Shown piece by piece: positions 18,282 to 30,674 of a DNA stretch of 64,000 nucleotides. The DNA comes from Pirellulales bacterium (GTDB lineage Bacteria > Planctomycetota > Planctomycetia > Pirellulales > JADZDJ01). Position 1 is the stretch's first letter, and each line of letters begins with the position of its first letter. The translations under genes and the position numbers were made by a program. Where the stretch lies: the NCBI GenBank assembly GCA_963738835.1, contig CAVTYH010000001.1:592071-656070 (forward strand). Direction: 5' to 3'. Below the pieces are notes generated by a model. The model was not told where the DNA came from. It ran no database searches and worked only from the letters and a program-made list of their open reading frames with translations.

Positions 18282-18839
18282 ATGCCCATTCTTGTCCGCG
18301 AGCCCGACATCTTTCCCTCCGACCTATTTGATCGGCCGGCCATCGAGAATGGCGCGACTTGGTGGGTGCTGTACACCATGTCGCGGCGCGAAAAGCAGCT
18401 GATGCGATGCTTGCATACAGCGGAAATTTCGTTTTATGCGCCTCTTGTTCGGCAGCGAAAACGATCGCCAGCAGGTCGCCAATACGTAACATACGCGACG
18501 TTATTTCCCGGTTACGTTTTTCTCAAGGGAGATGATGACCAGCGTCGTGCTGCACTAACCACAAATTGCGTTTCTCGTTGCATCAGCGTGAGCGACCCAG
18601 CGCGGCTGACACACGATCTGCAACAAATACGCCGTTTGATTGAAGCGGAAGTTCCGCTAAGCACCGAGAAGCGACTGGAGCCAGGCGAGCGAGTTCGTGT
18701 CTCAAGCGGTCCGCTGATCGGTCTGGAAGGCACGGTGATCCGCCGCCATGGCGACCGTCGATTGCTCGTGGCGGTTCAGTTTTTACAGCAAGGTACTTCC
18801 GTTCAGCTCGACGATTTTGCTGTCGAGCGAATCGACTAA
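18282..18839 (+). CDS. NusG-family transcription antiterminator paralogue (RfaH/UpxY-like)
   Basis: NGN domain WWVLYTMSRREKQL..LFPGYVFLKGD. KOW motif GERVRVSSGPLIGLEGTVIR. First gene of the plus-strand glycan gene run. Confidence 0.8.
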   Translation: MPILVREPDIFPSDLFDRPAIENGATWWVLYTMSRREKQLMRCLHTAEISFYAPLVRQRKRSPAGRQYVTYATLFPGYVFLKGDDDQRRAALTTNCVSRCISVSDPARLTHDLQQIRRLIEAEVPLSTEKRLEPGERVRVSSGPLIGLEGTVIRRHGDRRLLVAVQFLQQGTSVQLDDFAVERID

Positions 18840-18900: not shown

Positions 18901-20106
18901 TTGATGGCAACTGCGACCGACACCTCGAAAGTGCCCGCGGTTTTGGGCGGCAAGCCAGCGTTCGAAAAATTGCTGCCCATCGTCCGTCCTACATTGCCCA
19001 AACACGAAGAGTTGGCCAGCGAACTGGCCGAGATCATTGGGTCTGGCATGGTGACTCGGGGCCGGCAGCTGCAACTGTTTGAAGAAGCCGCGGCTGCTCA
19101 TTTGCGCGTGAAACACGCCGTGGCGGTTTCCAGCTGCACTAGTGGATTGATGCTCGTGTACCAGGGGCTTGGGCTGAAGGGCGAGATCGTCGCGCCGAGT
19201 TTTACATTTATGGCGACCGTCAGCGCCGCCGTTTGGGCGGGGCTGCGACCCGTGCTGGTGGATGTCGATCGAGGAACTCATAATATCGATCCCGCAGCGG
19301 TCGAACGTGCGATTACTCGGAACACAACCGGCATCGTAGCTGTCCATAATTTTGGCAATCCGGCTGACATCGCGGCGCTCGAGCAAATCGCGCAGAGCCA
19401 CGGATTGAAACTGGTCTTCGATGCCGCCCACGGTTTCGGCGCTCAATACCAGGGCGTGCCTGTCGGGCCGCAAGGCGATGCCCAGGTTTACAGTCTTAGC
19501 CCGACGAAATTGGTTGTCGCGGGCGAAGGGGGGATTGTTGCCACGAATTGTGATACTTTGGCCGAAAGAATTCGCCGTGGTCGTGAATACGGCATGGGCG
19601 CCGCCTACGACAGCCTCTTCGCCGGAATGAATGCCCGCATGAGCGAGTTTCACGCTTGTCTAGGTCGACACAGTCTGGCGATGCTGGAGCGAAACGCAAA
19701 TCGACGACAGGAAATCGTCGCATTGTTCCGCCGCGAACTCGGCCGCCTACCAGGCATTCATTTCCAGGAAGTGCTGCTTGGCAATCGGGCGTCGTACAAG
19801 GATTTTTCGATTACCATCGATGCACAAGCATTCGGCCTTTCCCGTGATGAGCTGGCCAAGGCCGTGGCCGCGGAAAACATCGATACGCGGAAATATTACG
19901 ATCCGCCGGTCCATCGACAGACGGCCTATCGTCAGTTTGCACCCGCCGAACAATCGTTAAGTGTTACCAATTGGCTGGCTTCTGCAAGTTTAAGTTTGCC
20001 ATTGTGGTCGCACATGACAGACGAAGTTGCGCTGCAAATCTGCCGAGCTTGCAAACGGATTTACGAGACTGCGGAAGACGTGCAAAGCAGATTAGCGGTG
20101 AACTAG
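18901..20106 (+). CDS. DegT/DnrJ/EryC1/StrS family sugar aminotransferase (PLP-dependent)
   Basis: Intact 401-aa ORF. Family-typical blocks AVSSCTSGL, FDAAHGFGA and PLP-lysine context VYSLSPTKLV. Confidence 0.9.
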   Translation: MMATATDTSKVPAVLGGKPAFEKLLPIVRPTLPKHEELASELAEIIGSGMVTRGRQLQLFEEAAAAHLRVKHAVAVSSCTSGLMLVYQGLGLKGEIVAPSFTFMATVSAAVWAGLRPVLVDVDRGTHNIDPAAVERAITRNTTGIVAVHNFGNPADIAALEQIAQSHGLKLVFDAAHGFGAQYQGVPVGPQGDAQVYSLSPTKLVVAGEGGIVATNCDTLAERIRRGREYGMGAAYDSLFAGMNARMSEFHACLGRHSLAMLERNANRRQEIVALFRRELGRLPGIHFQEVLLGNRASYKDFSITIDAQAFGLSRDELAKAVAAENIDTRKYYDPPVHRQTAYRQFAPAEQSLSVTNWLASASLSLPLWSHMTDEVALQICRACKRIYETAEDVQSRLAVN

Positions 20107-20222: not shown

Positions 20223-21765
20223 ATGTTTAGAGCTCAACCGAGAAGAGTTACGCCGGGAATGGCCCTGCGCATCTTTGCCGATGTGCTAATGGTGCAGTTT
20301 TCTTTGCTGGCCGCACTCTCGCTGATGCTCTTGTATCATTTGCTCGTGGGCTATTTGCCGGCGGCCAAGTCGTTATCGCAGCATTTTTGGTTCATGCTGG
20401 GGCAGTATGCTGACGCGGCCTGGTCGCTGACCATCATCTGCATCGCGGTCTTTTATCTAAGTGGCTTTTACACGTATGGGCGTTTTTATCAGGGTCGCTA
20501 TAAGGCGCTGATTATTATTCAAGCTGTCTGCCAAAGTTACTTATTTTTTGGATTCATCACTTATTTCTTGCAAGGAAAATTATCACTACCACGTTCGGCG
20601 CTGATTTTGTCGTGGGCATTAACTTTAGTGCTGCTGCGTGGGCTCCCGGTTGTGGTTGCACGTCTGGAAAAAAATCGCTGATCCGGAACGCGATCGCATT
20701 CTAGGCCAAAAACACAGCGCGGCTAAACATGTGCTGGTGATTGGCGGAGCCGGCTACATCGGTTCTGCGTTGCTGCCCAAACTGCTGAGCAGCGGATACC
20801 GCGTGCGGCTGCTCGACTTGCTGATGTTCGACACCGACCCGATCGATCAGATCCTTGGTCATCCGAATTTGGAAATCATGCAAGGCGATTTCCGGCATGT
20901 CGGCAAGATCGTCGAAGTGATGCAAGGGGTTGATGCCGTGGTGCATCTGGGGGCTATCGTCGGCGACCCAGCCTGCGAATTGGACAATGAGCTAACCACG
21001 GAAGTCAATCTATCCGCCACGCGAATGGTCGCCGAAGTGGCCAAGTTCTGCGGCGTCCAACGATTCATCTTCGCCAGCACATGCTCGGTTTACGGGGCCT
21101 GTGATGAATGCTCGACGAACGATCTTCCACGCGACCCGTCTCTCACTACGGCAACACGAAGTTGGCCGCCGAACGGGTGCTGTTGGGCATGGCCGATCAG
21201 CGCTTTGCACCGACCATTTTGCGATTTGCCACGATCTACGGCCTCTCGGGCCGCACGCGATTTGATCTGGTGGTCAACCTCCTAACGGCGAAAGCCAAGA
21301 TCGACGGCAAAATTACCGTCATGGGCGGCAATCAGTGGCGGCCATTTGTGCATGTTGACGATGCCGCCTTGGCGGTTGCAACCGCTCTAGGACGCGCCAC
21401 TGGAAATTGTCGGCAACGAGATTTTCAACGTCGGCTGTGACGCCCAAAACTACACGATCAAGCAGATGGGAGAGATTGTGCACGAGCATGTGCCCGGCGC
21501 AGAATTGCTCGTCGACGAGCACGATACCGATCGTCGGAACTATCGCGTCAGCTTCGCCAAAATCTGCAATCAATTGAACTTCCAGCCGCAGTGGACACTG
21601 GAGCAGGGCATCCAACAGGTGCTCGAAGCCATCGCCCGCGGCGATATTCTCGATTACCGAGACGCCAAATATAGCAACGTGAAATTCCTGAGCACGCAAG
21701 GCACCGAACAACTGAGCCGCAGCACGTGGGCGCATGAATTGCTGAAGGAAATCACGGCTAATTGA
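20223..21765 (+). CDS. SDR-family NAD-dependent sugar epimerase/dehydratase with N-terminal 4-TM domain; about 3 frame changes in this assembly
   Basis: TM region in ORF 20223..20681. Rossmann VLVIGGAGYIGSALL, STCSVYG and YGNTKLAAE (YxxxK) lie in ORFs 20638..21285, 21108..21440 and 21466..21765. Confidence 0.8.
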
Positions 21766-22505
21766 AGCATTTCTGGCGCAATGGCTGCAGAACTGGACCG
21801 CCTGATTCAACTTCATCTCTTAAACTGGACACAAGTGCTGTGCGCGTTCTTGTAGTGGCGCCCCATCCGGATGACGACGTGCTTGGTTGTGGCGGCGTCA
21901 TGGCTCGCCACGCAGACAAGGGAGACGATGTGCATGTGGTGGTAGTGACGCGAGGCATTCCGGAGCTGTTTTCGTCAGAGTTCGTAGAACAAGGGCGGAA
22001 CGAACTTCGCCAAGCACATCAATTGCTGGGAGTGGACGGCTTGCGATTTCTCGATTTCCCGGCGCCACGAATGGACACCGTGCCTCGGCATGAGATATCT
22101 GATGCCATCGGCCGTGTGCTGAAAGAGATTGAGCCACAAACCATGTACGTGCCGCACTTCGGCGACATGCACTTCGAGCATGGTTTAACCTATGAAAGCT
22201 GTCTTGTGGCGGCCCGGCCAATCAGAAATTGTTCAGTGCAGCGAATTCTGGCCTATGAAACGCTATCCGAGACTGAGTGGGGCCCGCCGATCGCTGGAGC
22301 CGCTTTCCAGCCGACTGTCTTCGTCGATATCGCGCCGTATTTGGAAAGAAAACTCGCCGCTATGGCAGGCTTCAAAAGCCAATTGCACGCTGAACCGCAT
22401 CCGCGATCCTTGGCGAATTTACGGGCCCTGGCCAAGCTTCGTGGCAGCGTAGCATCGTTGCAGGCAGCGGAAGCTTTTATGTTGGTTCGCGAAATCGTGG
22501 GTTAA
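21762..22505 (+). CDS. PIG-L/LmbE family deacetylase
   Basis: VLVVAPHPDDDVLGCGG motif. The true start is unclear: ATG 21781 (MAAELDRLIQLHLL) is in a neighbouring frame, suggesting an indel near 21820. Confidence 0.8.
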   Translation: MKHFWRNGCRTGPPDSTSSLKLDTSAVRVLVVAPHPDDDVLGCGGVMARHADKGDDVHVVVVTRGIPELFSSEFVEQGRNELRQAHQLLGVDGLRFLDFPAPRMDTVPRHEISDAIGRVLKEIEPQTMYVPHFGDMHFEHGLTYESCLVAARPIRNCSVQRILAYETLSETEWGPPIAGAAFQPTVFVDIAPYLERKLAAMAGFKSQLHAEPHPRSLANLRALAKLRGSVASLQAAEAFMLVREIVG

Positions 22506-22519
22506 AAACTCTGATAGCC

Positions 22520-22948
22520 GTGGATAACTTGCTTCATTCGCCATTTCGGCTGCATCACGTTGGATTTGTTGTTCCGACGCTTGCTACGGGACAGGCAATG
22601 CTCAAGATGTTGGGATTCGATGTCACCACTCCCAGCTATGCGGACCCGGTTCAAAAGGTGACCGTACAATTCATTTACCCGTCAAGCGATGTTGCTATTG
22701 AACTGATTGCACCGCTGGACGAAAAGTCGCCGGTCACTCGTTTTCTAGCCAAGCAAGGCGCCGGATTGCACCACTTGTGTTACGAAGTGCCAGATATTGA
22801 CGACGCCTGTAAATATCTCCGCGAGCTGGGCAGCATCATTTCCTGCGAGCCGGTTGGCGCGGTGGCTTTCAACGGGCGTCGCATCGCGTTTCATTATTGG
22901 CAGCGGCAAATTATCGAGTTGCTCGAGGCCGAGAAACCGCTCTTATGA
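22520..22948 (+). CDS. VOC (glyoxalase/methylmalonyl-CoA epimerase-like) family protein
   Basis: HHVGFVVPTL and GLHHLCYEVPDID metal-ligand contexts. GTG start. 142 aa. Confidence 0.7.
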   Translation: MDNLLHSPFRLHHVGFVVPTLATGQAMLKMLGFDVTTPSYADPVQKVTVQFIYPSSDVAIELIAPLDEKSPVTRFLAKQGAGLHHLCYEVPDIDDACKYLRELGSIISCEPVGAVAFNGRRIAFHYWQRQIIELLEAEKPLL

Positions 22949-24672
22949 AATCGCGCATAGTGCGAATCGCCGTTTTGGCGTCCTTTAATCTCGACCTGCT
23001 AAAAAGGTTGCTGGGCGAATCGTTATCGTGCGCCGGCATGAGTGCAGAGTTGTACTTCTCCGGATACGGCTTATGGGAGCAGGAGTGCGTGGACCCCAGA
23101 TCTGCGTTGCACGAATTTCAACCTAACGTGGCAATTCTGGTTGCCGACGCGGCCGATTTGCTTCCGCCGCTGCATCCAGGCGATATGTTGCCAGAGCGAG
23201 CCAAGAGCGCCAGAACTGGCTCGAACGGTTGGCAACGATTACTAACAGCGATCGATGGCATCCTCGAAGGCTCGCCGCAGACGACAGTTCTGGTTCACAA
23301 TTTAGTGCGCCCAAGAATCAACACACTGGGAACTCTGGAAGACAATTCCGGTTTTTCCGCAGGTGCCGCGGTCGCTTACATTAACGACCAACTTCGCTCG
23401 TTAGCAGAAAGCAACATCCAGGTTCGTGTGATCGACTATGCAGGCTTTGTGTCAGAACATGGGCATGCCGTGCTCTCCGACGACCGGATGTGGCATTTGG
23501 GTCGTATGCGACTGGGGCGTAAAGGGCTGGAACTTCTAGCGGCGCTGTATCCACGGTATGTTTCAGCGCTGTTGATTCCGCGTCGCAAGTGCCTGGTGCT
23601 CGATTTGGATAACACTCTTTGGGGCGGAGTGCTTGGCGAAGACGGCCCCGACGGAATCGCCATTGGGCAGGAAGGATTGGGGCTGGCATTTCGAGAATTT
23701 CAACTGGCGATTCTGGCGCTTGCACAGCGCGGCGTCGTACTGGCTATCGCGAGCAAGAACAATCCGGCCGACGTTTTTGAAGTTCTCGAGAATCATCCCG
23801 AAATGGTGCTTCGCCGGCGAGATTTTGCCTGTGCTGAAATTCATTGGAATCCGAAGTCAGAATCGTTGCCGCGCATTGCTGAGCAATTGAATGTTGGGCT
23901 CGACAGCTTCGTTTTTTGGGACGACGAACCACGTGAGCGCGAAATTATTCGCACCCAACATCCCCTGGTTTTCGTTCCTGAGGTGCCCGTCGATCCGTCG
24001 TCGTATGCTCAGATGCTGCTGAATCTGGAGTGTTTTGATGTGCTTAGCCTGACCGAAGAAGACCGTCGGCGCGGTGAAATGTATCGCCAAGATGTCAGCC
24101 GGCAACAATGGTTGACAAGTGCCGCGCCGTCGAACCTCGCGGAGTTTTATGAATCACTCAACATGTCTGTATCAATCGACCGGCCTGATGTCTACGGCGT
24201 GCAGCGACTCGCGCAATTGACGCAGCGCACCAGCCAATTTAATTTCACCACGCGTCGCTATACGGAAGCTGAAATTCAGGCGAAGTTGGATGATCCGTTG
24301 TGCGGTCTTTACGCCATCAGTCTGGCCGATCGTTTCGGAAAACTAGGCGTTGTCGGCGCGGCGATCGTCTATCGACAGCCGCAAACCTGGCAGCTTGACA
24401 CATTTTTGATGAGTTGCCGAGCGCTAGGCCGAGGCGTCGAAGAAGCGTTCATGGCAACGTTGGCGTCGGAAGCGGCCGATGCTGGAGCGGTTCTCTGCGG
24501 CCAATTTATCACAACGAAGAAAAACGTGCCCGCTCGGCAGTTTTTGGAGCGATTGAATATTCCACTTTATGAGTGCGGCGACTCGGTCTTCCATTTCGAA
24601 ATTGATCCGGCCAAAATCGTTTTTCCGTCTTGGATTGCCAGACTACCGGGAGTTCACTCCTATGAGTCGTGA
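22945..24672 (+). CDS. FkbH-like HAD-IIIC family protein
   Basis: HAD-IIIC core CLVLDLDNTLWGGVLGEDG..LAIASKNN..FVFWDDEPRERE. ATG 22945 overlaps the upstream stop (ATGA). Intact, about 575 aa. Confidence 0.85.
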   Translation: MKSRIVRIAVLASFNLDLLKRLLGESLSCAGMSAELYFSGYGLWEQECVDPRSALHEFQPNVAILVADAADLLPPLHPGDMLPERAKSARTGSNGWQRLLTAIDGILEGSPQTTVLVHNLVRPRINTLGTLEDNSGFSAGAAVAYINDQLRSLAESNIQVRVIDYAGFVSEHGHAVLSDDRMWHLGRMRLGRKGLELLAALYPRYVSALLIPRRKCLVLDLDNTLWGGVLGEDGPDGIAIGQEGLGLAFREFQLAILALAQRGVVLAIASKNNPADVFEVLENHPEMVLRRRDFACAEIHWNPKSESLPRIAEQLNVGLDSFVFWDDEPREREIIRTQHPLVFVPEVPVDPSSYAQMLLNLECFDVLSLTEEDRRRGEMYRQDVSRQQWLTSAAPSNLAEFYESLNMSVSIDRPDVYGVQRLAQLTQRTSQFNFTTRRYTEAEIQAKLDDPLCGLYAISLADRFGKLGVVGAAIVYRQPQTWQLDTFLMSCRALGRGVEEAFMATLASEAADAGAVLCGQFITTKKNVPARQFLERLNIPLYECGDSVFHFEIDPAKIVFPSWIARLPGVHSYES

Positions 24673-24898
24673 AATGTTGCGGAAACTCGTGGCCGAAACG
24701 CTGCAGTTGGCTCCCGATCAGGTTCCGCCAAACGCCAGCAGCGAAACATTGGAAGCTTGGGATTCACTGCGGCATCTGGATATTATTCTCGCGGTCGAGT
24801 CGGCCACTGGAATCAAATTCCCGACGGCCGAAATCGTGGAGCTTACATCGCTGCCGAAGCTCGAAGATGCACTTGCTCGACACGGTTGGAAGTCATGA
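24662..24898 (+). CDS. acyl carrier protein (ACP-1)
   Basis: 78 aa from ATG 24662. Phosphopantetheine-Ser context EAWDSLRHLDIILAVE. Overlaps the FkbH stop by 11 nt. Confidence 0.8.
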   Translation: MSREMLRKLVAETLQLAPDQVPPNASSETLEAWDSLRHLDIILAVESATGIKFPTAEIVELTSLPKLEDALARHGWKS

Positions 24899-25878
24899 GC
24901 CAAACGTGGGAATGCCGATCGTATCGGCCAGGAGACGAGAACGGCATCCGCGACTTGTACCGCGAGGTCTTCCATATCGACATGTCGCCTCAGCTGTGGC
25001 ACTGGATGTATCAATTATGCCCAGCCGGGCCCGCGGTTATTGTCGTTTTGGAATATCAAGGGCGGTTGGCCGGACATTATGCGGTACAACCGCGCGAATT
25101 CTGGATGGTTGGGCAGCGCTGCACTGCAGGCATTGCCGTTGGTACGATGTTGCTGCCAAGCATTCGCAGCGTAAGTGCCCTTAGCGATCTGGCGCAGCAG
25201 GCATATCTGTTGTGTCGGCAGCGAGGCTATGAATGGCTGTACGCATTTCCGAATGATCAGGCCCATCGGGTACGCTGCGCACTCTTGGGGTGGCGGCCAC
25301 TGCCGGAAATCGTCGAGTGGGACGGTCCCTTGCCACGGGTGAATTCGGCCGTGGCCGACAACGTGCGTACTTGGTCGCAAATGCCCGGTCATATTGATTT
25401 TGCACCGCTGTTTTCAGAACCGGCGCAGCGGGCGAATCCGGGCTCGGAATGGATTTATCCCGCGCGTTCCACCGACTGGATCCGATGGCGATATTTTGAG
25501 CGACCTGACAGCGAGTACATTTTGCACACGCTCGCCGAACAGCAGGGTGTGTTGGGGTATGCGGTTACCAAGCGATATACTCGAGACGGCGTGCGCTACG
25601 GTCACGTGCTGGATTGGCGCATGGCGGCAAATGCCAGCGATCGGACCGCGGACTTGTTGACCTCGGTATGGAGACAGTTACTCGATTGGAATGTCGAGAG
25701 GGTTTCTTGCTGGGCCCGGGGGCAAACCGAACTTGTAAAATGGTTAACGATGGCTGGTCTCTCGATGGCAGGCATTAAAACAAACTTTTGTTATTTCGAC
25801 TTGAACGATCGCCATGATGCGTTGCTGAACCAGGCCAGTGCGTGGCAGGTTGAGATGGCCGAGAGTGATCGATACTGA
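24895..25878 (+). CDS. putative acyltransferase (weak GNAT-like pattern)
   Basis: Intact 327-aa ORF. ATG 24895 overlaps the ACP-1 stop (ATGA). YQGRLAGHYAVQP..AGIAVGTMLLPSIR..GYEWLYAFPN is only loosely GNAT-like, so the function is called mainly from context. Confidence 0.5.
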   Translation: MSQTWECRSYRPGDENGIRDLYREVFHIDMSPQLWHWMYQLCPAGPAVIVVLEYQGRLAGHYAVQPREFWMVGQRCTAGIAVGTMLLPSIRSVSALSDLAQQAYLLCRQRGYEWLYAFPNDQAHRVRCALLGWRPLPEIVEWDGPLPRVNSAVADNVRTWSQMPGHIDFAPLFSEPAQRANPGSEWIYPARSTDWIRWRYFERPDSEYILHTLAEQQGVLGYAVTKRYTRDGVRYGHVLDWRMAANASDRTADLLTSVWRQLLDWNVERVSCWARGQTELVKWLTMAGLSMAGIKTNFCYFDLNDRHDALLNQASAWQVEMAESDRY

Positions 25879-25937: not shown

Positions 25938-26663
25938 ATGCGGGCGTTAAATTCGATTGGATTGGGACTCAAGCGAATAATCGATTTAGTCGCTGCGATC
26001 GTGCTGTTGGTCGTCTGTTCGCCTTTGTTTCTCGTCGTGGCGATTCTCATCAAACTCGATTCGTCCGGGCCGGTGTTTTTTCGCCAGGAGCGAATCGGGT
26101 ACCGCGGACGACTGTTTCGCATTTTTAAGTTTCGCACCATGACGGCCAACGCGGACCAAATCACCCGAGGCATGCCCGGCGATGCCGCCTGTCCGTTGAT
26201 TACTCGTGTAGGACAACACTTGCGGAACTATCGAATTGATGAATTGCCGCAACTAATCAATGTCGTATGGGGTGAAATGAGTCTTGTCGGCCCACGGCCC
26301 CTGGTGCCCGTCTACGCGAACGCTTGGACCGACGAGGAACGTAAGCGACTCAACATGCGGCCTGGGATGACCGGATGGCAACAAGTAAACGGCGCGGCAA
26401 CCCACGACTGGGCGCAGCGCGTCGCGCTCGATGTCTGGTATGTCGAGCATTGGACGTTGTGTTTAGACATTTTGATCGTGCTTCGCACTCCTTGGGTCGT
26501 TATCGCCGCACAGACGGTTTATGGCAGCGACGGAATCGATAGCAGCTCAATTCCTCCTCGCGCTGGCGGCGACAACTTCCAAGTCTTCGGATCCGTCGTC
26601 TGTTGGGCGACAACCTTGACCTCCGAGTCGCTGCCGAAGCAGCGAAGATCACCGGATTTCTGA
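25938..26663 (+). CDS. undecaprenyl-phosphate sugar-phosphate transferase (bacterial sugar transferase family, PglC/WbaP C-domain type)
   Basis: TM helix IDLVAAIVLLVVCSPLFLVVAILI, then SSGPVFFRQERIGYRGRLFRIFKFRTM and DELPQLINVVWGEMSLVGPRP. Confidence 0.9.
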   Translation: MRALNSIGLGLKRIIDLVAAIVLLVVCSPLFLVVAILIKLDSSGPVFFRQERIGYRGRLFRIFKFRTMTANADQITRGMPGDAACPLITRVGQHLRNYRIDELPQLINVVWGEMSLVGPRPLVPVYANAWTDEERKRLNMRPGMTGWQQVNGAATHDWAQRVALDVWYVEHWTLCLDILIVLRTPWVVIAAQTVYGSDGIDSSSIPPRAGGDNFQVFGSVVCWATTLTSESLPKQRRSPDF

Positions 26664-26667
26664 GCAA

Positions 26668-27318
26668 ATGAGATCAGGTCTGGAAGTAATCGTTATTGGC
26701 GCTGGCGGCCATGCCAAGGTCGTCATCAGCTCTTTGCGTGCCAGCGGATGGTCTGTTCGAGTCGTTTACGATGACGACCCCAAAAAATGGAATCACACGA
26801 TCCTGGATGTGCCGATATTGGGGCCTGTCGAAAAGCTTGGCGAACCTGATCGTTGCCCTGCCGTTATCGCCGTCGGGGATCCTCTGTTTCGCGAGGAGGT
26901 TGCAAGACAGTATGATCGGGACTGGGTCACCGTGATTCACCCTAGAGCCTATGTCGACGATACTGCAACCGTCGGGCCTGGAACAGTGGTTTTTGCGGGT
27001 GCCGTTATTCAGCCGGAAGTTTCCATTGGCACCCATGCAATTATCAATACGTCCGCAAGCGTGGATCACGATTGTATTCTCGACGATTATGTCCACATCG
27101 GGCCGGGAGCACATTTGGCGGCCAGTGTTCACGTTCAGCACGGAACATTTCTGGGAACCGGATCGTATGCAATTCCTGGCATTACAATCGGCAAATGTTC
27201 AACGATTGGGGCGGGGGCTACTGTGATTCGCGATATTCCCGACAATGTCACAGCTGTTGGATGTCCGGCACGTATTATTAAACGACACCAACCGTTTATT
27301 AAACGACACCAGCCGTAA
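26668..27318 (+). CDS. NeuD/PglD-family sugar N-acyltransferase (left-handed beta-helix)
   Basis: VIVIGAGGHAKVVISSL N-domain, then hexapeptide repeats (VGPGTVVFAGAVIQPEVSIGTHAIINTSASV..). The C-terminus carries the duplicated IKRHQP(F)IKRHQP. Confidence 0.85.
   Translation: MRSGLEVIVIGAGGHAKVVISSLRASGWSVRVVYDDDPKKWNHTILDVPILGPVEKLGEPDRCPAVIAVGDPLFREEVARQYDRDWVTVIHPRAYVDDTATVGPGTVVFAGAVIQPEVSIGTHAIINTSASVDHDCILDDYVHIGPGAHLAASVHVQHGTFLGTGSYAIPGITIGKCSTIGAGATVIRDIPDNVTAVGCPARIIKRHQPFIKRHQP
27277..27315 (+). repeat. 21-bp tandem duplication at the 3' end of the acyltransferase gene
   Basis: attaaacgacaccaaccgttt / attaaacgacaccagccg(taa): one mismatch. Encodes IKRHQPF-IKRHQP-stop. Confidence 0.9.
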
Positions 27319-27343: not shown

Positions 27344-27601
27344 ATGAATCGAACGACAGAAGTTAGAGCCGCCGTAGAGGCTGAGGTCCAGCGCATCTTA
27401 GAGCACTCGGGCAGGCCTTTGCAGTCGCCCCAGGATGATGATGCACTGTTCCGAATGGGGCTAGATTCTTTGGACTTAGCGCAGCTCGTCGTGGCGTTGG
27501 AACAGCGGTTGGGCGTCGATCCGTTCCGCAAACAAGGCTCTCCAATTCGCACGTTCGGCGATTTGATAAATGCTTATCGCATCGAATTGGAAAAGAATTA
27601 G
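27344..27601 (+). CDS. acyl carrier protein (ACP-2)
   Basis: 85 aa from ATG 27344, preceded by gagga. Ser attachment context FRMGLDSLDLAQLVVALE. Confidence 0.8.
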   Translation: MNRTTEVRAAVEAEVQRILEHSGRPLQSPQDDDALFRMGLDSLDLAQLVVALEQRLGVDPFRKQGSPIRTFGDLINAYRIELEKN

Positions 27602-27650
27602 TAATTGGCTGTTGCACGCTTACTTAGCGGGCATTCACTGTATCGAAGTC

Positions 27651-28337
27651 ATGCACGATCTTATCATTGTTGGAGCCGGCGCTTTCGCTCGCGAAATCAG
27701 GCAACTGGTTCCGCAGAGCTTTCCGTATCGTTCGGTGAAGCTAAAAGGATTCCTATCAAGCAACCCGCGCGATCTTGAGAACTATGAAATATCAGAACCG
27801 ATTCTCGCGGATCCGGATATTTATGTTCCGCAAGAGAACGACCGTTTTTTGTTGGCGATTGGCGACATCGAGGCTCGGCAGCGCATCGCCGAGCGTCTTA
27901 AAGCACGTGGAGCTCGCTTTCTGAGCCTCATTCATCGGACAGCGTACATCGATAACCGAGCTGAAGTTGGCGAAGGCTGCATTATTTACCCCTTCGTCAC
28001 AATTATGAATGATGCGAAAGTATCCGACTTCGTCTCGATGAACATTTACTCTTCCGCCGGCCACGATGCCAGAATCGGGCGGTTCTGCAATTTGTCTCCT
28101 TACGCAACCATGAACGGATTTAGCGTACTTGAAGACGAAGTATTTTTAGGAACCCATGCCAGCGTATTGGCTTATCGACGTGTAGGACGTGGCTCCAAGG
28201 TCAGCGCAAACTCGGTGGTGACGCAGGATGTACGACCGCGCATCGTTAGTGTTTGGCGTTCCAGGCAGGCAGACAGCGTTGATTTCGACCTCATCTTAGC
28301 TTCTGAAGGCACGGCCTCTCCCGGTGAGCTTGGTTGA
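27651..28337 (+). CDS. hexapeptide-repeat (LbH) acyltransferase, NeuD-like N-domain; probable frame change near the C-terminus
   Basis: ATG 27651 MHDLIIVGAGAFAREI. Hexapeptide repeats VGEGCIIYPFVTI..IGRFCNLSPYATM. The expected C-terminal LVFGVPGRQ lies in another frame near 28245. Confidence 0.75.
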   Translation: MHDLIIVGAGAFAREIRQLVPQSFPYRSVKLKGFLSSNPRDLENYEISEPILADPDIYVPQENDRFLLAIGDIEARQRIAERLKARGARFLSLIHRTAYIDNRAEVGEGCIIYPFVTIMNDAKVSDFVSMNIYSSAGHDARIGRFCNLSPYATMNGFSVLEDEVFLGTHASVLAYRRVGRGSKVSANSVVTQDVRPRIVSVWRSRQADSVDFDLILASEGTASPGELG

Positions 28338-28607
28338 CGTTTGCCGATAACCAGCGAATAGATTTCACGACATCGACTGAGCGATGTGGTAAATAAGCAA
28401 CAGTGTGTTGGCAATCGCATCCGTTTTCATTGACACAGAACCGCGGTTAAGAATTGGGCGTTTGCCAGTTTGAAGATGATTTTTAAGATGAGCCACAATT
28501 GTCGGCACGGCGTTTGCCATTCAATTCGAGTTCTTTGTAGCTTCGCTTAAGAAATGATTGACGCAGTAGCATGTCGCAAGTCGGAGCCAACGACAGTAAG
28601 TGCATCC

Positions 28608-29913
28608 ATGCATCAAAAAACGGAGTTTGACCTGCAACAAATCAATGTCGCCAGTCATCCCCAGGGACCAACTGCTCTGGCACAAAAATCGCTGCTGCAC
28701 CATATTTCCTGGACTTTGATCGGGAATGTGATTTATGTTGCCTGCCAGGCTGGATGGTTGATTCTAATTTCAAAGTTGAGTAACGAGGGATCACGGGGGC
28801 GATTTGTTTTAGCGTTGTCAATTACCACTCCCGTGATCTTTTTTTCCGCCGTGGCGATGCGGCAGATGCTGGCGACCGATGTCAAACACGAATATCCTTT
28901 CTCGGTATACCTGCGCATCCGCTTGTTGACCACCGTCTTGGCGATTGTCGTGATCGGCGGAATCGCCGCTGTACAATGGAGCGACCATCGCGCCGCCGCA
29001 GTCGTGTTGCTGTTAGTGGGAACAGCTAAGGCGTTTGAGTCGATCAGCGACATCATTTTTGGGCGGATGCAGCAATTCGAACGACTTGATCGCGTGGCAC
29101 TCTCGATGATGATCAAAGGCCTGATTTCACTAATCATGCTGGCGATCGGACTTGCCGTCACGCATGATGCTGTCGGAGCTGCTGCCGGAATTGCCATTAG
29201 CTTCTTGATAACGCTGCTATTGATTGATATCCCCAGCGCACGGTTGGTGACGAAACACGCAGCACTGTCAGAATCGCACGCGCACTCTGCTCGGAATGGG
29301 GGGCCTTGGTTCTTCAGCGGTTCTTCCGGTTTGCAGCTTGTTCGTGGCGCTGCACCCTTGGCCTTTGCCAGCGGATTGGTCGTATTGAATCCAAACATTC
29401 TGATTTATTTCATCCGCTGGAGTTCGGGAGAGCGCACCGAAGAACTGGTCGGAGTCTATGGATCGCTAAGCTATTTGGCACAAATTGGCACGATTGTGGT
29501 CGCCGGCGCTGGGCATGGCCGCCGTAACACGGCTCGCGTCCTATTTTGCGGATGGAAAGATTCGAGAGTATTACCGCGTGCTCTGGCGGCTCGTGGGTTT
29601 GTGTTTTGCGCTGGGGGTGCTGGGTGCAATCGTCACGTTACTGGCCGGAAAAGAAGTACTCGCGATTCTGTTTCGCAAAGGCGATGCGGCTTACGCCGGC
29701 GTACTGGCATGGGTCATGGTCGCAGCGGCAATTTCCTACATTGCAAGCATCCTTGGACTCGCCGTCACTGCCACACGCACTTTTCATCGGTTCACCGTGC
29801 CGTACCTGATAGTAACGATCGTAGCAATAATCGCCTCCGCACTGCTGATTCCTCGGTTCGGATTGACAGGCCCGCCTGGCAAGTTGCGCGTTTCAATCTT
29901 GCGGCCTGTATGA
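28608..29913 (+). CDS. Wzx-type oligosaccharide flippase (MOP superfamily); at least 1 frame change in this assembly
   Basis: Multi-TM. The N-terminal two thirds lie in the frame of ORF 28554..30674 up to about 29500. The C-terminal third is in ORF 29485..29913 (..LGMAAVTRLASYFADGK..). Confidence 0.7.
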
Positions 29914-30674
29914 CGGCTGATATTTATTCTTCTTGGCCTTCATTTCAGAAGCATTCATGGCACAACACCGCGATCAATTGGTCGATAATTACGCCGACCA
30001 CTTTGCGAATTAATCGCACGCTTGACGCTCGCTCGATGAAGCCGCCAAGGATTTCCGGATCACGAGCACACTTTTGGTTCTGTGCTGCGTCGTTCCGACC
30101 CGGTGCGCGAATTCTTGATCTCGGATGCGGCGTGGGTTTTCTGCTGAACTGGTTGGCCCGACGGCCTGGGATTGTGGCAGTTGGCGTGGATGCCTCGGCA
30201 TCGCAACTGGAAATTGCCCGCGCCAATTTGCCAAATGTGGAATTTAGTGGCGAGGACTGGAATACCTGCGGTCAAATCCCGAATCGTTCGACGGGATTTT
30301 TTGCCGACGTGTTGGAGCACATTCCTGGTACCGATCTGTGCATCGAATGGGTCCAAACCGCCCGCGCCGCACTGCGACCAGGTGGATTCTTTGTCTGTCG
30401 CCGACCCAACGGTGCAAACCTAACCGCCTCTTATTCGAGATATATCGATTTGACCCATGAGCGAATTTTTACCGAAGTGTCGATCCTGCAATTACTCGAA
30501 GCGGGAGGGCTGAGTGGCGGTCGCGTATTGCCGATTCGGGCCGGAAGTCTTGGAGGCCGCACTCGAATTGCGGTCGAAGCCGGCTTGCATCGGATGATAT
30601 ATCGGCTTTGCGGACAAGGGCAGGTACATCACTTTACGTACAATGTGTTCGCCGTTGGTTACCGTAGTGACTGA
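29910..30674 (+). CDS. class I SAM-dependent methyltransferase
   Basis: RPGARILDLGCGVGFLLNWL (motif I), FFADVLEHIP, RPGGFFV. ATG 29910 overlaps the flippase stop. The first ~60 codons look frame-disturbed (MAQHRDQLVDNYADHFAN in another frame). Confidence 0.75.
   Translation: MTADIYSSWPSFQKHSWHNTAINWSIITPTTLRINRTLDARSMKPPRISGSRAHFWFCAASFRPGARILDLGCGVGFLLNWLARRPGIVAVGVDASASQLEIARANLPNVEFSGEDWNTCGQIPNRSTGFFADVLEHIPGTDLCIEWVQTARAALRPGGFFVCRRPNGANLTASYSRYIDLTHERIFTEVSILQLLEAGGLSGGRVLPIRAGSLGGRTRIAVEAGLHRMIYRLCGQGQVHHFTYNVFAVGYRSD

Follow-up and report, generated by a model that had tools for sequence, protein, structure and literature searches.

An FkbH, acyl carrier protein and tandem GNAT cassette in a Pirellulales glycan locus and its predicted role in acylating a priming amino sugar

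N-glyceroyl pseudaminic acids occur in Tannerella forsythia, Campylobacter jejuni (as the 2,3-di-O-methyl form) and Vibrio vulnificus, and the genetic basis of N-glyceroyl substitution was called 'a major challenge' in 2017 (PMC5378307). In Neisseria, the N-glyceramido bacillosamine-type priming sugar GATDH is made by PglB2, a phosphoglycosyl transferase (PGT) fused to an ATP-grasp domain (PMC11130364). Here we analyse a stretch of 64,000 nt from a Pirellulales bacterium (assembly GCA_963738835.1, contig CAVTYH010000001.1, positions 592,071-656,070, forward strand; hereafter the window), in which genes for an FkbH-like protein, an acyl carrier protein (ACP) and a tandem GNAT are translationally coupled within a glycan locus. 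Together with a coupled VOC-fold gene, they form a four-gene cassette that probably, though far from assuredly, adds a C3 acyl group derived from glycerate to the priming amino sugar of a polysaccharide associated with an exosortase. A full-text literature search found no paper characterising a pathway of FkbH/ACP-dependent glycan acylation.

Published data on C. jejuni strains are in keeping with this reading. Sacher et al. (2020) reported that the fkbH-domain gene cj1302 is a pseudogene in strain 12664 and that strain 12661 is devoid of cj1301, a gene with an epimerase annotation; neither strain has the dimethylglyceric-acid pseudaminic acids of strain 11168, and the authors drew no link between the loss of cj1301/cj1302 and the missing glycans (PMC7099621). 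These strains provide an independent experimental hint, a weak one from three strains, for a pairing of FkbH with an epimerase. The cj1301/cj1302 region also holds ACPs, a methyltransferase, an N-acetyltransferase and FabH2.

Four coupled genes and their products

The coupled chain is four genes, all on the plus strand.

22520..22948, plus strand: VOC-fold metalloenzyme (Glyoxalase_4, PF13669), candidate modifier of an ACP-bound 2-hydroxyacyl thioester
22945..24672, plus strand: FkbH-like protein, predicted glyceryl-S-ACP synthase (TIGR01686, TIGR01681, PDB 3slr)
24662..24898, plus strand: ACP-1, dedicated acyl carrier protein (PF00550; phosphopantetheine site Ser35)
24895..25878, plus strand: tandem GNAT, predicted acyl-ACP:amino-sugar N-acyltransferase (PF13527, AlphaFold2, Foldseek)

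A first-pass annotation of this DNA had described the last three as a trio chained by overlapping stop and start codons, and its coordinates and overlaps were borne out. All three open reading frames (ORFs) are intact in sequence and translation (575, 78 and 327 aa, respectively, with no internal stop); those of FkbH and ACP-1 share 11 nt (24662-24672, the FkbH stop codon lying at 24670-24672), and ACP-1 and the third ORF are joined by an ATGA overlap at 24895. The ATGA at 22945, which had also been ascribed to the trio, is likewise present, but its partner is the VOC-fold gene that the annotation had left out, whose TGA at 22946-22948 overlaps the ATG of FkbH at 22945. The start codons of FkbH and of the third ORF are supported, respectively, by a near-invariant M1 among aligned homologues and by a family consensus that opens at the same methionine. 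For ACP-1, a GGGAG lies 9 nt 5' of the ATG at 24662, and an alternative ATG at 24674 stands one nt past the FkbH stop; coupling is tight in both cases. Overlaps of 4 nt recur in homologous loci (introduced below), between VOC and FkbH in L001, L004, L040 and L041 and between ACP and GNAT in L001, L002, L004, L040 and L041, and since they have been kept in this way the coupling is no chance feature of the window.

The assignment of the first member of the trio to the FkbH family was upheld. The protein scored 299.8 bits against TIGR01686 (curated cut-off 146.65) and 64.4 bits against the HAD-IIIC model TIGR01681 (cut-off 35.75), and is made up of an FkbH_N/SGNH-like domain, a HAD-IIIC phosphatase domain and a C-terminal transferase domain bearing a cysteine. 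Residues 8-372 match PDB 3slr (BF1531 of Bacteroides fragilis, an uncharacterised protein of solved structure). In an alignment of 28 homologues (37-66% identity), HAD motifs I-IV (D220-L-D222-N-T224, S270, K304 and D326-D327) and the C-terminal S490-C491-R492 are invariant. The conserved cysteine of the C-terminal domain is, in the work of Dorrestein et al. on OzmB in 2006, reportedly the acyl-enzyme site. The gene is the sole FkbH in the genome. Like its characterised relatives (PMC7489565), the protein is thus predicted to make glyceryl-S-ACP from 1,3-bisphosphoglycerate. The second protein proved to be an ACP, as proposed, with 25.1 bits against PF00550 (cut-off 20.8) and a W33-D34-S35-L36 phosphopantetheine motif carrying the expected DSL serine.

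That the third protein has an acyl-transfer fold was confirmed by profile and by structure prediction; it is a tandem GNAT. PF13527 matched the N-terminal half only (30.4 bits; cut-off 25), the sequence had no NCBIfam or PDB match, and the fold search alone was informative: an AlphaFold2 model built from a 32-sequence alignment (pLDDT 91.9, pTM 0.90) retrieved with Foldseek, at probability 1.00, Eis2 (6rfx, E 2.9e-14), N-myristoyltransferase (1nmt) and the tandem GNATs 2wpw and 7q3a, with TM scores of about 0.6 and 9-15% identity. The Q/R-x-x-G-x-G/A motif binds the pyrophosphate of the donor in acyl-CoA users; at this site the protein reads R91-S-V-S-A-L, with the arginine conserved and the glycines replaced, which is uninformative on ACP use. 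The C-terminus (25863-25878) carries M321-x-D323-S324-D325-x-Y, conserved to the protein end across the family, and recalls N-myristoyltransferase, in which the C-terminal carboxylate acts in catalysis. A 662-aa fusion protein (P0186) had no recognisable N-terminal domain and so gave no clue to the acceptor of the GNAT.

The VOC-fold protein scored 76.9 bits against PF13669 (cut-off 27). Its best NCBIfam model, TIGR03081 (methylmalonyl-CoA epimerase), was matched at 67.8 bits, below the cut-off of 114.95, which makes it a member of the superfamily only. Among seven cassette homologues the ligand positions E61, H84/H85 and E133/E136 are invariant, and an N-terminal HH is present in every full-length one. 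We speculate that the protein is a C2 epimerase of a 2-hydroxyacyl thioester.

Conservation of the cassette and the proposed pathway

Relatives of the GNAT were compared in 11 distinct loci (the window, L001, L002, L004-L008 and L040-L042) from Pirellulales, Scytonema sp. NIES-4073, a Chloroflexia genome, a Kofleriaceae genome and unassigned metagenomes; a contig scan by one peptide pattern gave four loci, and the true distribution is wider. The order FkbH-ACP-GNAT was found in all 11, spanning at least four phyla (Planctomycetota, Cyanobacteria, Chloroflexota and Myxococcota), and ACP-1 accordingly has its place between the other two throughout. A Bac_transf PGT directly adjoins the cassette in 10 of the 10 informative loci, and VOC lies upstream in nine of 10, being absent from L002. 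Other partners were less constant: DegT was present in 8/11 loci, PIG-L in 6/11 and a PglD-like LbH gene in 5/11, O-methyltransferases often standing beside the cassette. Locus L007 (Chloroflexia) is compact (FkbH-ACP-GNAT-PGT-PIG-L-DegT-PglF) and has no LbH acetyltransferase. Two loci without PIG-L (L041, 10906-11853; L008, 8959-9795) have DUF2334 (deacetylase-like) and Methyltransf_24/TylF-type O-methyltransferase genes beside the cassette, which possibly stand in as a deacetylase and as O-methylating enzymes for the glyceroyl group.

In the window, the cassette sits within a plus-strand operon that begins with a NusG/UpxY-like factor, DegT, a PglF-like dehydratase and PIG-L, followed by VOC, FkbH, ACP-1 and GNAT; after GNAT come a 241-aa PglC-type PGT, a PglD/NeuD-type acetyltransferase, ACP-2 and a second LbH acyltransferase, and further 3' a flippase-methyltransferase fusion, GT4 glycosyltransferases and more methyltransferases. 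Immediately upstream are export genes and an exosortase that scores above the cut-off of TIGR02602.

This setting was weighed against the pathways in which FkbH is usually met, all characterised enzymes of the family belonging to polyketide, tetronate or hybrid pathways (PMC7489565). On that precedent, the cassette might have no part in glycan synthesis and make instead a small glycerate-derived metabolite or lipid (a tetronate- or methoxymalonate-type unit, or an N-acyl amino acid), its placement in glycan loci being due to chance. No FkbK/FkbI-type dehydrogenase (3-hydroxyacyl-CoA and acyl-CoA dehydrogenase domains) was found in the ORFs of 16.1-38.0 kb or in related loci, nor was the methoxymalonyl-ACP set, i.e. 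FkbK/FkbI and an FkbG O-methyltransferase next to FkbH and ACP, present there; the locus had no FabH-like condensing enzyme or polyketide synthase (PKS) such as a tetronate operon would hold; and none of the examined cassette loci held a gene for a ketosynthase, FabH, an acyltransferase of PKS type (AT), FkbK/FkbI or a non-ribosomal peptide synthetase. Neither is there a modular PKS near the locus in the organism's own genome, whose ketosynthases are stand-alone, the nearest about 490 kb away. With a PGT adjoining the cassette in every informative locus across four phyla, we regard a non-glycan product as very improbable, and a PKS or tetronate role was rejected on the absence of FabH-like enzyme, PKS and FkbK/FkbI from the locus and the stand-alone nature of the ketosynthases. 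The first-pass annotation had noted that no dehydrogenase or O-methyltransferase was adjacent and that there was no PKS; this stands for the dehydrogenase and the PKS. The locus has several methyltransferases.

The glycan pathway that we favour would proceed as follows. By homology, FkbH would take 1,3-bisphosphoglycerate, its HAD domain (D220/D222) would strip the 3-phosphate, and the glyceryl group would be held on Cys491 before passing to the phosphopantetheine arm on Ser35 of ACP-1. VOC might then act at C2 of the 2-hydroxyacyl thioester, in the simplest case converting D-glyceryl to L-glyceryl. Judging from its fold, position, coupling and separate clade, the tandem GNAT would transfer the acyl group from ACP-1 to the free amine of an amino sugar, the acceptor being perhaps a UDP- or undecaprenyl-PP-linked sugar of the 2,4-diamino-2,4,6-trideoxyhexose type. 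This amine may be either that made at C4 by PglF and DegT or that unmasked at C2 by PIG-L (an N-acetyl to N-glyceroyl swap), the two being about equally likely. The adjacent PglC-type transferase, a constant neighbour, would finally load the decorated sugar, as first residue, onto the lipid carrier, and methyltransferases of the locus may O-methylate the glyceroyl group, a possibility raised by the several methyltransferases in the window and related loci.

The part played by PIG-L is brought out by the wider GNAT family, for which an exhaustive HMMER search gave 2704 representatives at E ≤ 1e-3 and 27 at E ≤ 1e-30. Remote relatives, of ~25% identity, occur in 96 of 401 Planctomycetota genomes, often in multiple copies. 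The planctomycete tandem GNATs of ~330 aa (L011-L039 and L043-L045) number up to five per genome, often as adjacent pairs, and often adjoin PIG-L deacetylase genes in amino-sugar operons. Among 29 planctomycete loci with remote relatives, a PIG-L gene stood beside the GNAT in 11, and FkbH or ACP was found within 1.5 kb in none; L043, for instance, reads GNAT-PIG-L-LbH-x-SDR-DegT. The 29 FkbH-linked GNATs group together in a maximum-likelihood tree as a single clade (support 100/99) apart from the remote relatives, as expected if the donor changed. On these comparisons, the wider habit is a deacetylase plus a tandem GNAT in amino-sugar operons, to which one clade has added FkbH, ACP and usually VOC. 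Since PIG-L is thus an older and frequent partner of the family, the acceptor need not be a product of DegT and the SDR dehydratase; the proposal that a glyceroyl group is transferred to that sugar stands as regards the acyl-transfer fold and is loosened as regards the acceptor, for which the PIG-L route is equally likely.

The same family also lends itself to a different account, in which the GNAT is an ordinary N-acyltransferase that restores an acyl group to the PIG-L product from acetyl- or acyl-CoA, and glyceryl-ACP is used elsewhere, for example by an LbH acyltransferase. All close structural matches of the GNAT use acyl-CoA, its remote relatives pair with PIG-L without FkbH or ACP, and the window holds, besides ACP-2, a pair of PglD-like LbH genes. 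The LbH acyltransferase class includes the acyl-ACP users LpxA and LpxD. Against this, no LbH gene was found near the cassette in 6/11 loci (L004, L006, L007 and L042 among them), the GNAT follows the ACP in all 11, mostly with a 4-nt overlap, and the FkbH-linked GNATs make up a clade of their own. We therefore hold an acyl-CoA-dependent GNAT to be distinctly unlikely and a GNAT fed by ACP-1 to be the better account.

Less easily dismissed, though still unlikely in our judgement, is a variant in which the route is the same and the acyl group another: VOC would turn glyceryl-S-ACP by way of an enediolate into a different C3 unit (e.g. pyruvoyl, by β-elimination of the 3-OH), and the sugar would be N-pyruvoyl, lactoyl-type or methylated. 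VOC is coupled to FkbH and present in nine of the 10 informative loci, keeps its metal-ligand positions and resembles true glyoxalase I (clostridial 3hdp/2qh0, 63 bits) as closely as methylmalonyl-CoA epimerase (1jc4/6qh4, 41 bits); methyltransferases recur beside the cassette. Lactyl-ACP is made from glyceryl-ACP by a reductase and a dehydratase in the FkbH-DH-KR loading modules of bryostatin and FR901464, and the cassette has no reductase or dehydratase; L002, moreover, has a cassette without VOC, which is thus dispensable in at least one lineage. The documented natural substituents are N-glyceroyl and di-O-methylglyceroyl (PMC5378307). A glycerate-derived acyl group of the glyceroyl kind remains our preferred product. 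The annotation's claim that glyceryl-ACP itself is the donor is rendered insecure by the coupled VOC, which may alter the acyl unit. Its further claim, acylation of an exopolysaccharide, agrees with the glycan-locus setting in at least four phyla; the constancy of the PGT as a neighbour suggests that the target is the sugar which starts the repeat unit, not the finished polymer. Taken as a whole, the earlier interpretation is partly supported, and has to be corrected to a four-gene unit whose acceptor is uncertain and whose acyl group may be modified.

Several points weigh against the pathway that we favour. Enzymes structurally related to the GNAT take their acyl group from CoA and not from an ACP; what VOC does is guesswork, and L002 lacks it; and ACP-2 and the two LbH acyltransferases of the window could also take part. 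Within 9 kb, L004 has no gene for PIG-L or DegT, which leaves room for O-acylation or a distant source of the amine. The PglF-like gene is frame-shifted in the assembly, and the C. jejuni correlation comprises three strains that differ in other genes too.

Other genes of the glycan locus

The remaining genes to which the text has referred are as follows.

18282..18839, plus strand: NusG/UpxY/RfaH-like antiterminator, first gene of the plus-strand glycan operon (PF02357, 41.2 bits)
18901..20106, plus strand: DegT/PglE-type sugar aminotransferase (PF01041, 337.6 bits)
20223..21765, plus strand: membrane-anchored PglF-like 4,6-dehydratase (SDR) with three frame changes (tblastn; Pfam Epimerase/Polysacc_synt_2 on a fragment)
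21762..22505, plus strand: PIG-L/LmbE-family de-N-acetylase, candidate unmasker of the acceptor amine (PF02585, 89.9 bits; cut-off 28.2)
25938..26663, plus strand: small PglC-type polyprenyl-phosphate phosphoglycosyl transferase (PF02397, 215.1 bits)
26668..27318, plus strand: PglD/NeuD-type LbH sugar N-acetyltransferase (TIGR03570, 215.9 bits; cut-off 160.8)
27344..27601, plus strand: ACP-2, second small ACP-like protein (LDSLD motif; weak ACP matches)
27570..28337, plus strand: second PglD-like LbH acyltransferase (PglD_N and Hexapep; TIGR03570 at 145.4 bits, below 160.8)

The true start of PIG-L is probably 20-27 codons downstream of 21762. Its PDB matches are TT1542, diacetylchitobiose deacetylase and BshB, and it falls far below the BshB and MshB equivalog cut-offs; with no cysteine ligase and a lipid-linked glycan locus around it, a mycothiol- or bacillithiol-like thiol pathway was rejected. 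The antiterminator reached 75.3 bits against the UpxY model, below its cut-off. The PGT consists of a single Bac_transf domain, TIGR03025 matching the C-terminal catalytic part only.

Compared by tblastn with the intact 513-aa orthologue of L001, the PglF-like gene carries residues 1-140 in one frame and residues 136-512 in a second, with 298-389 returning to the first, the frame changing near 20635 (close to an A7 run), 21112 and 21390; the orthologues of L001 and L005 are each in one frame. The split is likely a long-read assembly error rather than a pseudogene, since split genes are also met among the others of this genome and in L004 and L005, both related metagenome-assembled genomes. At other sites of the genome (G000), ketosynthase and PIG-L genes likewise appear as two adjacent fragments (C5:468488-469223, C2:904228-904997 and C1:906569-906921), which suggests frequent indel errors in the assembly.

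ACP-2 has no BLAST similarity to ACP-1 and was found outside the window only in the close relative L005. Its gene lies between the two PglD-like LbH acyltransferase genes, and no obvious loading enzyme was seen. Further 3', a 706-aa ORF (28554-30674) encodes a Wzx-type flippase fused to a class I methyltransferase domain (residues ~505-655); in L001 the two are separate genes, of which Polysacc_synt is matched by the N-terminal part of the fusion.

Comparison with described systems

N-glyceroyl and di-O-methylglyceroyl groups adorn surface sugars of Tannerella forsythia, Campylobacter jejuni, Vibrio vulnificus and Neisseria, and a gene has been assigned only for the ATP-grasp route of Neisseria. 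A conserved FkbH-ACP-GNAT cassette tied to a priming transferase offers a concrete hypothesis for this acknowledged gap, and one that can be tested in vitro. We advance with greater reserve, as a tentative proposal that we would sooner see doubted than taken as given, that the cassette supplies the genetic basis so far lacking for N-glyceroyl-type sugars, that its GNAT is the first Eis/NMT-like GNAT fed by an ACP, that a glyoxalase-like VOC protein fixes the configuration, or the identity, of a C3 hydroxy acid drawn straight from glycolysis and bound to the carrier, and that the unit travels between phyla with its priming PGT. If this were true, a loader of the polyketide type would have been reused in glycan tailoring, a glycolytic intermediate would feed surface-sugar decoration directly, and annotators would gain a sequence marker predicting non-acetyl N-acyl sugars.

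The loading step has known counterparts. FkbH/OzmB/Tmn16-type synthases (e.g. Mad7/Mad8 and Mad14/Mad12; PMC7489565) share with the present pair the FkbH domain, the HAD-IIIC motifs, the cysteine and a stand-alone adjacent ACP, as well as the predicted substrate, 1,3-bisphosphoglycerate, and product, glyceryl-S-ACP. In contrast to the methoxymalonyl-ACP and tetronate pathways, the locus has no FkbK/FkbI, FkbG, FabH-like tetronate synthase or PKS; here the predicted consumer is a tandem GNAT in a glycan locus, and VOC is coupled upstream.

The Neisseria system is alike in its product. It, too, uses a priming sugar made by a dehydratase and an aminotransferase, and its acylating function is physically tied to the PGT; GATDH carries N-glyceroyl in place of N-acetyl, the same type of product as predicted here, reached by different chemistry. 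Whereas PglB2 relies on ATP-grasp, no such domain was found in the Pirellulales locus, and an ACP loaded by FkbH is the predicted source of the acyl group, which would pass through the GNAT. Campylobacter PglD/PglC and the fused PglB/PglB2 of Neisseria are arranged like the cassette beside its PglC-type transferase. The flagellar genes of C. jejuni NCTC 11168 resemble the cassette in that fkbH-domain and 'epimerase' genes stand together in a glycan locus and a glycerate-derived N-acyl sugar is made; they differ in their acceptor, a nonulosonic acid on flagellin, and cj1301 and cj1302 are uncharacterised, the likeness of cj1301 to VOC being one of annotation.

Removal of an N-acetyl group followed by re-acylation is known from NodB/NodA with the ACP NodF (Nod factors), from LpxC/LpxD (lipid A) and from Orf2*/Orf11* of teicoplanin. 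As in the route proposed through PIG-L, a deacetylase there frees the amine of a GlcNAc-type sugar and a dedicated N-acyltransferase re-acylates it, with an acyl-ACP donor in two of the three; unlike it, these systems employ CE4 or LpxC deacetylases and NodA or LbH acyltransferases, and the group transferred is a fatty acyl chain, not a C3 hydroxy acid. The tandem GNATs of the Eis and NMT type (6rfx, 1nmt, 2wpw, 7q3a), finally, are alike in having two GNAT folds within ~330 aa, a conserved N-terminal catalytic half and N-acylating activity, and unlike in using acyl-CoA and in acting on aminoglycosides or peptides. As far as can be judged from the genes, the cassette would thus combine known kinds of biochemistry, namely FkbH/ACP loading, N-acylation by a GNAT and N-glyceroyl priming sugars.

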